This document shows, piece by piece, positions 7,045 through 26,998 of a stretch of DNA of 34,006 nucleotides (position 1 is its first letter; each line of letters begins with the position of its first letter). Origin of the DNA: a virus (Duplodnaviria > Heunggongvirae > Uroviricota > Caudoviricetes); IMG/VR virus record IMGVR_UViG_2529292836_000023; one strand, 5' to 3'. The notes beneath the pieces were generated by a model, which saw nothing but the letters and a program-made list of their open reading frames with translations, made no database searches and had not been told where the DNA came from. Position numbers and translations under genes: made by a program.

Positions 7045-8235
7045 TTAATTGCTGTTAACCGAAGTGACCAGATTTGCCAGGTATTTATCGGTAATACGCT
7101 GGCGCAGGGTCAGGTTTTCGAGAGGAGGCACCGGAGTATAGTCGTAGTCGATATACAGTTTTCCGGCCTTGAGGGTTTCCGCATCGTTGGATTCTTCGCT
7201 GAACCAGCAGGTCGCATCCACGATATAGCCGTTTGTTTTCAGTTCACGGAATTTGGCATTAATGCCGTCAACGATGTCGCGAATCAGCGTTGCGGTGATG
7301 GGCTTGTCCACCGCCCACATGTGCGCCTCAGCCATCGTGTCGGCCAGCACCTGCGCGGTACGGGTGTAGTTTTCAAAGAGGAACAGCGGGTCATCAGAGC
7401 AGGTACGGTTACCCCAGAAGCGGAAACCGTCGCGGCGAATCAGCGTAGTGACGCCTGACTCGTTAAGCAGGTCAGCATCGGTGCCGGACTCCTGCAAATC
7501 CCAGAATACAGATGCGCTGATGCCGGTAACACCGTTTACCCCGACGTTGGACAGCGTTTTATGCCAGCCCTGCTCCTGGTCGATTTTAGCGCGCAGACCC
7601 AGCGCACGGGCGGTGGCATACGCGGTGGCGGTGGTGCTGCTGACCGTATCCCATGCGAGGAAATCCGGCCAGATGACCATCAGCTCACGCTGGCTGAAAT
7701 TCTGACGGTAGGCTTTCACCTCGGAAATGGTTTTACAGCCCCATGCGCTGATATACCCGAAAGCGCGCAGCTTCTGACAGACTGATGCCAGTGCAACAGC
7801 CACCTCTTTGGTGTCCAGTCCCGGCACGCCGAGAATACGCGGTTTAACACCGGTTACCGACTCCGCCGCCAGCAGGGCTTTCAGTCCGGTGTACTGACCG
7901 TTTTCGTCGGTGGTGCCGATGATATTGGAAACGGTCTGCGCGAGTTTCGTTTCTTCGTCGTCGCCGGTGCCGTCTTCCACACGCACGACAACGGTGACCG
8001 GTTTTGACTGGTCAGCGATGGCCTGCAGCGACGCCGCCAGCGTGCCTTTTTTACCGGCCTTTGCAATTGCGCTCTGCACATTGGTAATCAGCACAGGTTT
8101 ATTGAGGGGGAAGGTTTCCGCATCCGCATCGCTGGCCGTGCAGACCATGCCGACAATGGCAGTGGATACGGTGGAAATGACGCGGGTGCCGTCGTTAATC
8201 TCCAGCACCTGCACGCCGTGATGATAGTCACTCAT
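7045..8235 (-). CDS. FI: Contractile tail sheath protein gpFI
   Basis: 396 aa, same length and position as P2 FI. Confidence 0.9.
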   Translation of the reverse strand: MSDYHHGVQVLEINDGTRVISTVSTAIVGMVCTASDADAETFPLNKPVLITNVQSAIAKAGKKGTLAASLQAIADQSKPVTVVVRVEDGTGDDEETKLAQTVSNIIGTTDENGQYTGLKALLAAESVTGVKPRILGVPGLDTKEVAVALASVCQKLRAFGYISAWGCKTISEVKAYRQNFSQRELMVIWPDFLAWDTVSSTTATAYATARALGLRAKIDQEQGWHKTLSNVGVNGVTGISASVFWDLQESGTDADLLNESGVTTLIRRDGFRFWGNRTCSDDPLFLFENYTRTAQVLADTMAEAHMWAVDKPITATLIRDIVDGINAKFRELKTNGYIVDATCWFSEESNDAETLKAGKLYIDYDYTPVPPLENLTLRQRITDKYLANLVTSVNSN

Positions 8236-8533: not shown

Positions 8534-9061
8534 TTAATCAATTTTATTACTTTTACCTGCAACCTTTTTATTATAATGATAATAAGAAATAGCACTAGCA
8601 AAATAGGATTTTGTCATCGATACGAAAAAACCCAACAAATCTGCCATGTTATCAATATCAATATTTGGTTTAGTTTTACTGGCTTTAGTAATCTTCATAT
8701 AGAAGTCCACAAACTTACTTTTTTCTTTATCCGTAATCTGATAATTCAATTGATGACTGATTTTATTTCTTATGCTGTTAAAGTCTTTTATTCTTAAATA
8801 TATTTCATCATAAGGGGGTTTTGCAGGCTCATGTTGTATTAAAGCTATTTTTTGTGAAAATGTGAGTTTTGCATCACCCCAAGCTAACGAAGGATATCTT
8901 AATCCAAGATAATCAGTAATATAATTTTCAAGGCTCAAGTGCGCAGTAAGAAAGGCACCTATGAAGGCAACGTCAACCCCATCAACACGTTCCCATATGC
9001 TTTCATTTTCATCAGTCATACCTGTATACACAGCGGTTGATGCAAGATCTTTCCAGTCCAT
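8534..9061 (-). CDS. Hypothetical cargo protein at the P2 Z/fun position; possible HEPN-like protein (Rx4H motif RNKISH)
   Basis: 175-aa ORF with AAGGA Shine-Dalgarno 6 nt upstream of ATG 9061, in a markedly AT-rich block between conserved FI and G; not recognised as any P2 core gene. Confidence 0.7.
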   Translation of the reverse strand: MDWKDLASTAVYTGMTDENESIWERVDGVDVAFIGAFLTAHLSLENYITDYLGLRYPSLAWGDAKLTFSQKIALIQHEPAKPPYDEIYLRIKDFNSIRNKISHQLNYQITDKEKSKFVDFYMKITKASKTKPNIDIDNMADLLGFFVSMTKSYFASAISYYHYNKKVAGKSNKID

Positions 9062-9450: not shown

Positions 9451-9978
9451 TTATTGCGGCATTTCCGGCCATTCAGGATTTGCAGGATCCACACGGCTGA
9501 CCAGAACACTGTAGCGTTCCCATGCTTCCAGTCGGCTACGCTCCTCATCTGTTGCCATGTTCAGCCTGACAGCGCGCTCCAGTGGCTGAATAACGCTTTC
9601 CGCTTCGGAAAGTAACGCGGCCTTTTGTGATTCTGCCTGTTGTTGCTGTTCGTCTGCCGTATAAATCCGCTTAATCACGGCACCATCCTTAAACATCCAT
9701 TTCCCTGAGTCATCAGCACGTCGGTTGGCGGTAATATCAGGAACCTCGACAACGCTAAAACCTTCAGGGTTAAGCGTTGAAGCATCTCTGGTGATGCCGA
9801 CAATTATATTATTCTCGTCGTAAACAATCTTTATCGTGTCTGCCTGAAAATTACTTACTTCCTCATACCAGTTTTTTCCCTCTTCGGACCATAACCAGAT
9901 AACATCAAAATTTTTTGTCAGTTGATATTGGGCAACAGTTTTTGGATTACCCGCAGTAATATTTTTTAAATGCTGCAT
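9451..9978 (-). CDS. G: Tail fibre assembly chaperone gpG
   Basis: 175 aa, same length and position as P2 G, immediately downstream of H. Confidence 0.85.
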
Positions 9979-9981
9979 AAA

Positions 9982-11322
9982 TTACACCTGTGCGACGTTA
10001 TACCATGTGCCATTGATGTATTTTTGTATTGGTCTGAATACTGCGGGGTCATCACCATCGACTTCACCGATAATACCAAGCCCGGTAATTACGTGCCCTG
10101 CTTTCTCATACATCACCCCTTTCTTCATGGTCTGGACAACTCGAGTCCCAAGCCGGATATCGCGTACATAACGGGAATCAAAATTACTATAGTTAGATGG
10201 TGATACCTGCCCGTTAACAGCAAAAGTGATGCTGTTATCTGTATTTCTCTGACTGTAAAAATGCCAGCCTGCATCATCACCTAATTCAGCCACCACAGGA
10301 CGACTTGAGTTTCCCCACAAATTGAATGCGGCTTCCTTCGTGGATGTATTGCTGCTGCTGACCGTGAACTTTTTCCCGCTACCGGCACGTACTTTGGTAC
10401 TTGAGACAATATCACCTGTAACACTCAGGCCATGCCCCATTGACACTCCGCCATTGGCGTTATTGATAGTCAGCGGTCTTAAGCCGTTCCATGTCCCAAA
10501 TTTATCGCCAGAGGCCGTCAGCATTAAATATGTGCTGCCGCCATCATTCCTGATAAAGAAACCATAATTGCCATAAGCAATGCGCAGACCATTAGCACTG
10601 AGTGATGTAATCTCACCTCTTGAACGGAGACCATAAGCGGAGCTGAGTGATAATTCTTCCTGAGCATCAGTATTACCAGTCGCCCAACGAACTACCCCGC
10701 CCTGTACTGTTTCATGCCAGATAGTGTCTCCTTCTCCACCACGAAACTTTCTGAGATATTTTTTGCCGCCTCTTGTGCCTGAACATAAGGCCGTAGACAT
10801 ATAGGCATTCTGGCTTCCACCGTCCTGATTAATCGTTCCGGTCATTGCGTCGCCCTGACGATTCCAGTCACGACGCCAGCCGGGGGAGTAGCCGTCCCCA
10901 TGATTAATGTAAGTGAATTGTGCGCTGGTTGTACCGCCACCGCTTGATGTTGTCGGCGTGGTCACTCGGATAGTGATTGCAGATTTAGTTCCCATGACCT
11001 CGACGACACAACCAGCCAGGTGGATATCACCACATCCGGTATCCGTAATGATTTTGTTATTTGCATATGACCAAGAGCCTTTGCACATCCAGTACGGATG
11101 ATTAAATGCACCACGGGAATCCAGCCATTCAATAAACTGAGCGGTTGTCCAGTTTCCGGCTTCAGTGCTCAAAGCACCGCTATAAGCACGACAGGCACCG
11201 ATATTTTTCGTGAAGGTATCCTTTCCCGGAATATCCGCACCATTCTGATCTTTCTGAAGACGTTTTTCAGCATTGTCATAGGCAGACTTCACCGCTTTGG
11301 TTGCGCCGCGTTTCAGAATCAC
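9982..11322 (-). CDS. H: Tail fibre protein gpH, C-terminal portion (gene interrupted upstream)
   Basis: C-terminus ...GHVITGLGIIGEVDGDDPAVFRPIQKYINGTWYNVAQV and upstream SSSNTSTKEAAFNLWG...AELGDDAGWHFYSQRNTDNS match the P2 H C-terminal region; ORF begins inside the repeat array. Confidence 0.8.
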   Translation of the reverse strand: MILKRGATKAVKSAYDNAEKRLQKDQNGADIPGKDTFTKNIGACRAYSGALSTEAGNWTTAQFIEWLDSRGAFNHPYWMCKGSWSYANNKIITDTGCGDIHLAGCVVEVMGTKSAITIRVTTPTTSSGGGTTSAQFTYINHGDGYSPGWRRDWNRQGDAMTGTINQDGGSQNAYMSTALCSGTRGGKKYLRKFRGGEGDTIWHETVQGGVVRWATGNTDAQEELSLSSAYGLRSRGEITSLSANGLRIAYGNYGFFIRNDGGSTYLMLTASGDKFGTWNGLRPLTINNANGGVSMGHGLSVTGDIVSSTKVRAGSGKKFTVSSSNTSTKEAAFNLWGNSSRPVVAELGDDAGWHFYSQRNTDNSITFAVNGQVSPSNYSNFDSRYVRDIRLGTRVVQTMKKGVMYEKAGHVITGLGIIGEVDGDDPAVFRPIQKYINGTWYNVAQV

Positions 11323-11700
11323 TGTTGGTGCGCTACTGAGCTGGACAAGACCTTTCGCGCGTGTGGCATCCTGTGCAGTGTATTTCCCGTTAGCAAGGTA
11401 TACGCGCTTACCGCCTTTGGCGTTGCGCAGCTTTCAGAATCGCTGTTGGTGCGCTACTGAGCTGGACAAGACCTTTTCGCGCTGTGGTGGCGTCCTGTGC
11501 AGTGTATTTCCCGTTAGCAAGGTCATAGCGCCTTTACCGCTTTCGGGTTGCGGCAGTTCAGACGTGCTGTTGGTGGCGCTACTGAGCTGGACAAGCCTTT
11601 TCGCGCTGTGGTGGCTCCTGGCGTTATTTCCCGTTAGCAAGTCATAGCGCCTTTACCGCTTGGCGTTGCGCAGGTTTCAGACTGTTGGTGCCTCTACTGA
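11297..11700. repeat. Degenerate tandem repeat array (about 3.3 copies of ~120 bp) inside tail fibre gene H
   Basis: Units starting GTTTCAGAATC.CTGTTGGTGCGCTACTGAGCTGGACAAGACCTTTCGCGC... recur with many small indels and substitutions; they encode the repeated P2 H segment (…KGLVQLSSATNSTSE…) on the minus strand. Confidence 0.8.
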
Positions 11701-12226
11701 AACCTTTTGCGGTCAGCGAGGCGTCCGGGTGACGTCGTGACTGTTCGTGCTCTGCAATTTTGTCATCAACGTAATCCTGCGTCGCCATCACCGTTGTGGT
11801 GTCAATGGTCAGCGCCACTGAGGACACACTGCTGACGATGATGACCATGCGGCAGGTCTGCGAACGCCCTGAGCCTTCGGCAAGAGCTGGCTTATAACTT
11901 TCGGCCATGTTCGCCACGGCAATTAACGTTCCAGCATCATCGTACAGGCCAAGCTCACGCATCCAGAAACCGCCCACCTCCGGCGGAATAACCAGCTCTG
12001 CGATAATATAATTACTGTTTCGTTTGTCCTGGCTGATTTTGTTCAGCGCATGCCGCCAGACTTCGTGGATAAGCCCGGTCTGTCCGGCATCCGGGACAGG
12101 CAATTTACCACCGCCATCCCCGACGGCCATCGTGGTAATGTTGACCTTCCGCCCTCCCGGTGCGGTTGCCGCTGCCAGCTTTGCTGCACCGGCAGTGGTG
12201 ATAACGGTTTTGAATTTTGTGCTCAT
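11642..12226 (-). CDS. H: Tail fibre protein gpH, N-terminal portion (frame lost in repeat array)
   Basis: N-terminus MSTKFKTVITTAGAAKLAAATAPGGRKV...GLIHEVWRHALNKISQDKRNSNYIIAELVIPPEVGGFWMRELGLYDD matches P2 H; ORF ends ...DASLTAKGFSRGTNSLKPAQRQAVKAL where P2 continues in frame. Confidence 0.8.
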   Translation of the reverse strand: MSTKFKTVITTAGAAKLAAATAPGGRKVNITTMAVGDGGGKLPVPDAGQTGLIHEVWRHALNKISQDKRNSNYIIAELVIPPEVGGFWMRELGLYDDAGTLIAVANMAESYKPALAEGSGRSQTCRMVIIVSSVSSVALTIDTTTVMATQDYVDDKIAEHEQSRRHPDASLTAKGFSRGTNSLKPAQRQAVKAL

Positions 12227-24087: not shown

Positions 24088-24403
24088 CGCCCGCTTCATG
24101 GGGCGGTTTTAATGCAGTTGCATGATATGGCCTAACGCGTATCAGCCCTGACATAGCAGGATTGGAAAATGCTTAACAGATGCATGCAAAATCATTCAAC
24201 GCACAAATGCGTTATACACAATTAACAACGACTTATCCGGTTGTTTGCTTTTCTAATGAACAATAAAAAAACACTCTTCGTACAATGTATGATCTGAATC
24301 ACAAAACGCAAACAAGAAAGGTGTAAACACATTGATTTTTAAACAAAAATAATCACCATTAAGATTAATCTCACTTTTCACGGCATAACCTATGGGAGAT
24401 AAA

Positions 24404-26998
24404 ATGTCTGAACGTGATGTCACCAAAGCTAAGTTAGCGTTAAAAAAAAGAACAGTTAAAGATTTGGCTGATTATATAAAAATAAAATCAGGAACAACTC
24501 CTGACTATTCGCTATTCCTCGGTGCTGGTGCGTCTGTCACATCGGGAATCAAAACTGGTCAAGAGCTTGTAGAGGAATGGAGAGCTGAAATATATACAAG
24601 ATTATCAAATAAAAAATACTCCGATTCAGAGGAAGCCAAAACATGGTTAGCAACAAACTACCCTGAATGGTATGATCAAAATAATGAGTATTCTTCCCTT
24701 TTCGAAAAAAAATTTGATCTTCCATCTCAACGCAGACGATTTGTTGAACTTCAAGTAGATAAAAAATTACCTTCAATAGGATATGCTTACCTTGTCGAAT
24801 TGTTTGAATCAAAATTTTTTGATACCGTTTTCACAACAAACTTTGACGACTTGATAAATGAAGCATTTTATCAATTTTCTTCGGATAGGCCATTATTATG
24901 CGCACATGACTCATCAATTAAAGGTGTTTCAATCACATCATCCAGACCTAAAATAATAAAACTTCATGGTGACTATCTGTTCGACAGCATAAAAAGCTCC
25001 TTAAAGGAAACAGAGTCATTAGAAGGCAATACGCGTGAGAAACTCACTGAATTCACCAAAGAGTATGGACTAATCTTTGTTGGTTATGCTGGGAATGATA
25101 GCTCCATCATGGATGTAATAAAATACCTTCTAAAACAAGATGACTATCTTAGAAATGGAATATATTGGTGTATAAGAAAAAATGACAATATCTCACCAGA
25201 ACTTTTTAAATTACTTAGTCAAGAAAAAGTTTATTGGGTAGAAATTGATGGCTTTGACGAACTAATGGCCGAATTAGCTTTAGATTTAGGGTGTAGTCTT
25301 TCACTCGGAGGAAATCAAAAATACACAAAAAGAGAAAGAATGATTCAAAACTTCATAAATGATAAATACAATTTATCAACAAATGAAATAATCAACTCTG
25401 ATATATTGAGATTAAAAAGGCAAACACTTACGCATGATATATCATCATTAATCAATGAGCTTTCCCAAAGCGATGTTGATGATCAAAAAATACCTGAAGA
25501 GGACTTTAAAAATTTATTATATATTGACAATCTGATTAGAAGTAAAAACTATTCCAATGCCGAAGCCAGATTAAACACATTAATTAATGATGCAGATAAT
25601 GACAATATAAAATCAAAATATTTACGTCGCCTAATTGAGATTAAGGAAGATCAAAAAGATACGAAATCAGCTTTAGAGTATAGTGATAAATTGATCGCGC
25701 TTGATGAATTCAATATAAATTATGTTTTATCCAGGACAAACATTTTTACAGATGTAAAAGAAAAAGTTAATTACCTTAAGAGCTTATTGGAGAAATTTAC
25801 ATACAGCATCAGTCTTAAAAACCACCTATGCAAAATTGCACTATCATACTTAGAAAATAACAATGAAGAATTAATAAGCTTTAAGGAAATACACGAAATG
25901 CTTGAAAAAAGCATTCATCAAAACAGCAGCCTTGATAATATTGCATGGATGATAAAGTATAATGCGATAAAAACTGAATACCAATCAAGCTATGATAGAA
26001 CCGAATGCAATAAATTACTTTCCGAATTACTGGATAGAATCAAAGAAATCAACCCAATTCACGATACATATTTACACCTATATTCTGAATTCACATGCTC
26101 CTTACAGAAAAAGGATGAGATTCTAACATGTGTAGAGACGCTATCCAACATCTACAAAACATCATCCAAAAACAAAAAAAGAAATATTTTAACATATCTA
26201 ACAAAACTCCATCTGTCATTATTCGAGGTAGACTATAATGAAAAAACACCTCGTTTGATGAAAGATTTTATTGATAAATATGATGGTGATGGTGATATCG
26301 CCAGAATAGCCCCTTTTATCATATTTAAATCAAGATATGAAATCGGTTGTAACAAAGACATTAATACTGGTATTAAACTTGCAAAAGAAGCCATGGATAG
26401 CACTTGGAAAAACAATCAAATAGATAATATTGTTGAAATTCTATTAATTGACAAAAATAACATTCCACTGGTTGAGGAATTCATAGAAAACCTCCCTAGA
26501 GATACTTCAAGCATTCTCTTACTGAAGTTAAAGTCCGACATTTCAACTTTAAAGGGAAATTATAAAGAAGCTATAAATCTCATTGATCAAGCATTTGACG
26601 AAGGGTGGAACTTTAGCGATTACACCATAAGAAAATCTTATATAAATCTCTTGGCAAAGAATTATCATGAAACAATTAAAATTGCCAATGAAAGTTTAGG
26701 GAAAATAAAAAACTACAAGGAGAAAGATGTTCTACTAATTAACAAAGAGGTTGCCAAGAAAAAAGACAATCAAGAAATTACTAAACATGACATCCGCACA
26801 ATTTTATCCCACCACAATTCAAAGGGTTATGTTTCTATGTGTGCATTCTTCCTGCTAGACGAGGAAAGAAACGCCAAAAAACAACTACAATCATTGATAG
26901 AAAAAGATTTCATGAACTATTACAGATTTTCGCTTTGGCCAGCAATCCCTGAAAATGCGCTATTGCAATACAAACCCAACATAAATTTAGCAGCTTAA
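24404..26998 (+). CDS. SIR2-domain protein with long helical C-terminal region; candidate anti-phage NADase effector (family unassigned)
   Basis: ORF opens at 24392 but ATG 24404 has the better Shine-Dalgarno (GGGAGA). Ordered SIR2 signature LFLGAGAS ... TTNFDD ... KLHGD in the N-terminal ~200 aa; no Walker A motif; AT-rich island with its own terminator; occupies the P2 old/tin locus. Confidence 0.85.
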   Translation: MSERDVTKAKLALKKRTVKDLADYIKIKSGTTPDYSLFLGAGASVTSGIKTGQELVEEWRAEIYTRLSNKKYSDSEEAKTWLATNYPEWYDQNNEYSSLFEKKFDLPSQRRRFVELQVDKKLPSIGYAYLVELFESKFFDTVFTTNFDDLINEAFYQFSSDRPLLCAHDSSIKGVSITSSRPKIIKLHGDYLFDSIKSSLKETESLEGNTREKLTEFTKEYGLIFVGYAGNDSSIMDVIKYLLKQDDYLRNGIYWCIRKNDNISPELFKLLSQEKVYWVEIDGFDELMAELALDLGCSLSLGGNQKYTKRERMIQNFINDKYNLSTNEIINSDILRLKRQTLTHDISSLINELSQSDVDDQKIPEEDFKNLLYIDNLIRSKNYSNAEARLNTLINDADNDNIKSKYLRRLIEIKEDQKDTKSALEYSDKLIALDEFNINYVLSRTNIFTDVKEKVNYLKSLLEKFTYSISLKNHLCKIALSYLENNNEELISFKEIHEMLEKSIHQNSSLDNIAWMIKYNAIKTEYQSSYDRTECNKLLSELLDRIKEINPIHDTYLHLYSEFTCSLQKKDEILTCVETLSNIYKTSSKNKKRNILTYLTKLHLSLFEVDYNEKTPRLMKDFIDKYDGDGDIARIAPFIIFKSRYEIGCNKDINTGIKLAKEAMDSTWKNNQIDNIVEILLIDKNNIPLVEEFIENLPRDTSSILLLKLKSDISTLKGNYKEAINLIDQAFDEGWNFSDYTIRKSYINLLAKNYHETIKIANESLGKIKNYKEKDVLLINKEVAKKKDNQEITKHDIRTILSHHNSKGYVSMCAFFLLDEERNAKKQLQSLIEKDFMNYYRFSLWPAIPENALLQYKPNINLAA

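Follow-up and report, generated by a model that had tools for sequence, protein, structure and literature searches.

Is the tail fibre gene H of this prophage a genuine pseudogene, or was its reading frame broken when a repetitive sequence was turned into a draft assembly? The question was raised by an earlier note on the window (the whole stretch of DNA analysed here, 34,006 nucleotides, IMG/VR record IMGVR_UViG_2529292836_000023), which described H as interrupted within a degenerate tandem repeat and offered two explanations, either a tail-fibre-defective and domesticated prophage that carries defence genes, or a repeat that had been mis-assembled or left unpolished. The window originates from Escherichia coli 2731150, a whole-genome shotgun draft of 2013 (GCA_000354895.2, contig AQEB01000134.1, 171 kb). 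The P2-like prophage that it holds is complete and is flanked by the E. coli host genes trhP/yegQ and yegR.

Gene H in the window and in related prophages

By its domains and by the gene order I-H-G, the gene is an ordinary tail fibre gene of the P2 gpH type, in agreement with the initial identification. A gene encoding a PF09684 protein (Tail_P2_I, the homologue of gene I) is located upstream, and the intact tail-fibre assembly gene G (9451..9978, minus strand, 175 aa), which encodes a PF02413 protein (Caudo_TAP), is located directly downstream. Whereas a protein of the gpH type is expected to be encoded by one ORF of about 670-860 aa, H is broken here into two ORFs of 194 and 446 aa with stops between them, and the division into an N-terminal part (12226..11642) and a C-terminal part (11322..9982) could be confirmed. 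The N-terminal ORF (11642..12226, minus strand, 194 aa, GenBank EMW79385.1) contains the PF12571 tail-collar fibre domain, and its residues 1-175 are those of the intact protein, the match running to "...SLTAKGF". The first lesion in H, a loss of 4 nt at ~11700/11701, is then followed by 19 out-of-frame codons, which form the end of this ORF, and by a TGA at 11644-11642; the frame change had been correctly placed near 11640-11700. The C-terminal ORF (9982..11322, minus strand, 446 aa, GenBank EMW79384.1), which matches PF21446, differs from the intact allele by a single SNP at window position 10536, and its GTG 'start' is merely the first start codon past the last stop. The TGA previously reported at 11434..11436 (minus strand) is present as well. 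It shares its frame with the C-terminal ORF (11436-11322 = 114 nt, that is, 38 codons) and is a product of the frame shifts. The DNA of all PF03406 units is retained in the window but frameshifted, and no ORF encodes them. The GenBank entries EMW79385.1 and EMW79384.1 are best regarded as two pieces of one 764-aa protein.

The same prophage occupies the same site in five complete E. coli genomes (NCCP 13717, E2528-C1, ATCC 43886, F5505-C1 and HMDUC-17). Over the first 25 kb of the window, these sister prophages show 99.8% identity, and each is about 50 nt longer. The comparison with intact H genes of related prophages, which had been proposed as a check, revealed a continuous ORF of 764 aa in all five of them, within an H gene of 2295 nt that has a clean 132-nt repeat. 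In the annotations of F5505-C1 and NCCP 13717, H is accordingly one CDS of 2295 nt that encodes the 764-aa protein WP_032199506.1, with PF12571 at the N-terminus (E = 3e-58), four PF03406 repeats, and PF21446 in the C-terminal half. The prophages encoding WP_032199506.1 share their flanking genes with the prophage in the window, and their H is identical to that of the window outside the array bar one SNP, whereas within the 132-nt array the window lacks 50 nt as a result of 37 small deletions. The intact form is widespread: the 15 complete genomes that match best come from a variety of hosts and samples, with equal scores and a length of 2295 nt throughout, and 139 contigs encode exactly this protein of 764 aa. 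Full query coverage with 95-96% identity and a span of 2295 nt was also obtained for five records of Yersinia P2-like phages (four phages), including vB_YpM_46, the H of which is 95.6% identical and of equal length. The gpH of P2 (AF063097 / NC_001895) and of its Peduovirus relatives shares with the window the I-H-G order, PF12571 and the PF02413 chaperone, and with the intact form of H the PF03406 repeats; unlike the H of the window, the H genes of P2 and Peduovirus are continuous ORFs. The H of P2 itself is more distant, since only 54% of the query is matched, at 85.6% identity, and it has a different receptor-binding part.

A base by base comparison of the window with NCCP 13717 revealed 6 SNPs and 0 indels over about 33.6 kb outside the repeat, against 82 differing columns (default MAFFT) within 11296-11699. 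All other genes of the window have the lengths annotated in the intact sister prophage, and the other phage genes are all intact. The claim that the remaining structural genes are of the expected length, with lesions only in the repeat, is therefore borne out by these 6 SNPs and the absence of indels elsewhere. We regard the prophage as, most probably, a P2-like phage that is intact throughout. The six SNPs are located at window positions 2516, 2569, 10536, 24075, 28979 and 30219; four of them are a C in the window for an A in NCCP 13717.

Deletions at copy-specific bases of the repeat

Tandem Repeats Finder detected a single tandem array across the 34-kb window, at 11287..11681 (minus strand), with a period of 124 nt, 3.3 copies, 86% matches and 8% indels. 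The corresponding intact array of a complete genome has a period of 132 nt (44 aa), 3.5 copies and 0% indels; its copies are 83-90% identical among themselves, and it encodes four PF03406 'phage tail fibre repeat' units. Judged from the two sequences, the array of the window is a damaged image of the array of 3.5 copies of 132 nt, and its apparent period of ~124 nt arises because the deletions shorten the true 132-nt unit. The description of a ~120-bp unit in 3.3 copies thus holds for the array as deposited (period 124, 3.3 copies), but not for the true one, with its unit of 132 nt in about 3.5 copies.

To describe the lesions, we aligned the H gene of the window with the intact allele by a gap-tolerant global alignment. 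In this alignment, the array of the window equals the intact gene minus exactly 50 nt, with 37 deletions, 0 insertions and 0 substitutions. All 37 events lie within 11295..11701 (minus strand), and they comprise 29 deletions of 1 nt, 5 of 2 nt, 1 of 3 nt and 2 of 4 nt. The sole substitution in the whole gene is the SNP at 10536, which is outside the array and unrelated to the lesions. The deletion-only picture depends on the scoring, since a default MAFFT alignment gives 51 deleted nucleotides, 1 inserted nucleotide and 30 substituted columns; we adopted the gap-tolerant alignment because it requires fewer events (37 deletions, no substitutions). At the rate seen in the 33.6 kb outside the array (6 differences), about 0.07 differences would be expected in 405 bp, to be compared with the 37 observed, all of which are deletions.

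The positions of the deletions are strongly biased. Thirty of the 37 events fall on columns that differ between the repeat copies, compared with a mean of 13.7 under random placement; as many as 30 were obtained in 0 of 5000 permutations. The other 7 events are off the columns scored as variable; one of these is a loss of 4 nt at the left edge of the array, a point at which flank and repeat are not identical. When all equivalent gap placements were counted on the four-copy register, the bases deleted were 20 of the 27 that are unique to one copy, 8 of 28 tied bases, 6 of 49 majority bases and 27 of 364 invariant ones. Copy-unique bases are therefore lost far more often than all others taken together (20/27 vs 41/441; Fisher's exact p = 4e-14). 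In addition, 16 of the 37 events are found in the first copy, which is the most divergent one. There is no link with homopolymers: 18 of the 29 single-base deletions affect runs of length 1, and only one occurs in a run longer than 2. Sequencing errors of the homopolymer type (as in 454, Ion or nanopore data) were rejected on these grounds. We also rejected programmed frameshifting or recoding, in view of the 37 frame changes and the several stops.

Tail-fibre genes are mosaic and many alleles of H exist, and one could imagine that the prophage had gained, by recombination, a distinct natural allele with a shorter repeat unit of about 124 nt. However, no frame is open through this stretch, the two flanks do not differ from the intact allele until the array is reached, and all retained bases match that allele in order. 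Moreover, a closer match was found in no genome or phage record searched: among 5,426 complete E. coli genomes, the best full-length match to the damaged stretch is 90.5%, and a 49-nt piece of it has no exact match in the IMG/VR viral contigs. The identical flanks, the in-order bases and the lack of a closer match in the genomes exclude this candidate, to which we attach a negligible probability.

A probable consensus artefact and the biological alternatives

We are highly confident, from the pattern of the lesions, that the interruption of H is a consensus-calling artefact at a tandem repeat in a draft assembly; that the cause is technical rather than biological is almost certain. This reading is based on the combination of deletions only, their confinement to the array, their association with copy-specific bases, the draft source and the occurrence on a single contig. 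Indels are confined to 11296-11699, and the 33.6 kb elsewhere are free of them, as would be expected of an artefact. The lesions point to a consensus derived from a pile-up in which the repeat copies were mixed. In such a scenario, the assembly would have stacked reads or unitigs of different 132-nt copies onto one another and, wherever these did not agree in a column, the consensus would have left the base out instead of picking one. The outcome would be 37 deletions of one to four bases, an apparent period of ~124 nt, a series of frame changes and premature stops. One point speaks against this reading, as a simple majority vote should substitute the majority base at copy-specific positions and not delete it. 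The software step could possibly be the resolution of ties to gaps, or the writing of mismatches as paired gaps. What strain 2731150 really carries is very probably the intact allele of 2295 nt and 764 aa, as present at 1940786-1943080 of NZ_CP115984.1.

Consensus and collapse errors at near-identical tandem repeats are a well-known class of artefacts in draft assemblies. The array of the window shares with them the confinement to the only tandem array, the location of the lesions at copy-discriminating positions and the draft contig. Such errors usually reduce the number of copies or break the contig, whereas the array of the window retains its copy number and lacks copy-specific bases. The same array breaks contigs in many other draft assemblies, in which 'partial' N-terminal fragments of H end at aa 180-238; the PF03406 array is a systematic break point for draft assemblies. 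C-terminal 'partial' E. coli tail-fibre proteins that start inside the repeat were also noticed, corresponding to contig ends within the PF03406 array.

The damaged form seems to be unique to this draft. An exact protein look-up recovered the 194-aa ORF from one contig only, AQEB01000134.1. A 68-aa ORF located inside the damaged stretch has no homologue among 5.8 billion proteins, which is consistent with a one-off, non-natural sequence, although it says nothing on the pipeline that produced it. A search of the literature on this strain and its assembly yielded nothing relevant.

The main biological alternative is that H is a genuine pseudogene, decayed in a domesticated prophage that is tail-fibre-defective and kept for its cargo genes. 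In its favour, H is not one continuous ORF in the deposited sequence, indels arise readily in natural tandem repeats, and the cargo genes, encoding a SIR2-domain protein and a 175-aa protein of no known function, could favour retention of the prophage. Yet decay would need 37 independent small deletions in about 405 bp, free of substitutions and insertions, in a prophage with only 6 SNPs and 0 indels in 33.6 kb elsewhere relative to its sister; the mixed mutation spectrum of a decaying gene is not seen, and the remaining phage genes are all intact. The lesions are not inherited by relatives, H being intact in all the closest ones, and the damaged form occurs on one contig, as opposed to 139 for the intact protein. 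The deletions also target copy-specific bases (p = 4e-14), which known processes do not. Slippage and unequal exchange at tandem repeats lead to the gain or loss of whole units, and gene conversion leads to the substitution of bases; we know of no mutational process that deletes precisely those bases that distinguish one repeat copy from another. We consider a genuine pseudogene very unlikely. Of the two explanations originally offered, the mis-assembled repeat is the one retained, in view of the 37 array-confined deletions on copy-specific bases of a draft contig, and nothing supports the defective or domesticated prophage.

A preference for copy-specific bases could also be produced in the cell, if a real process removed them and thereby inactivated the tail fibre, for instance abortive heteroduplex repair between misaligned copies. 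A process of this kind would account for deletions at the positions where copies differ. Mismatch repair, on the other hand, resynthesises the excised tract, the result being conversion and not deletion, and to our knowledge no in vivo process excises mismatched bases without refilling. Furthermore, no comparable deletion pattern in H was detected among the 5,426 complete genomes searched, and the only example sits in a draft assembly. This possibility appears extremely remote to us.

If the interruption is an artefact of consensus calling, as we favour, the break in H is of technical interest only and carries little biological weight. Scans of draft genomes should not count frameshifts in near-identical tandem repeats as pseudogenisation. 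The signature described here (deletions only, located at copy-distinguishing bases, in an otherwise error-free contig) provides a simple reference-based test for such cases.

Cargo regions and the tail sheath gene

Nothing here indicates any domestication of the prophage. A low-GC island (30-37% GC vs about 56% in the phage genes) is present between the portal gene and the replication gene and encodes the SIR2-domain protein (24392-26998, plus strand, 868 aa). This protein has a PF13289 match at residues 145-268 and is probably a single-gene anti-phage cargo in a P2 variable region. Three PADLOC models (Aga_SIR2-PNTD1-PNTD2, pAgo and PDC-S65) match its N-terminal third to two-thirds only, and phrog_14359 matches its full length. 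No NCBIfam match was obtained for this protein, the C-terminal ~570 aa of which are uncharacterised.

The second cargo region is a low-GC stretch (~40%) between gene G and the tail sheath gene FI, at a position that we take to be the Z/fun locus of P2. It contains an ORF of 175 aa (8534-9061, minus strand), for which no Pfam, PADLOC or NCBIfam match was found; its only match is to phrog_5483, a family of unknown function. In the sister genomes, this ORF is annotated as a hypothetical protein (WP_001735421.1).

Both the window (7045-8235, 396 aa) and NCCP 13717 have an intact tail sheath gene. In the prophage of F5505-C1 (NZ_CP024257.1), it is annotated as a frameshifted pseudogene (7042-8231 of L001, the F5505-C1 locus), and this frameshift may be a further error of sequencing or consensus calling, not a biological feature.
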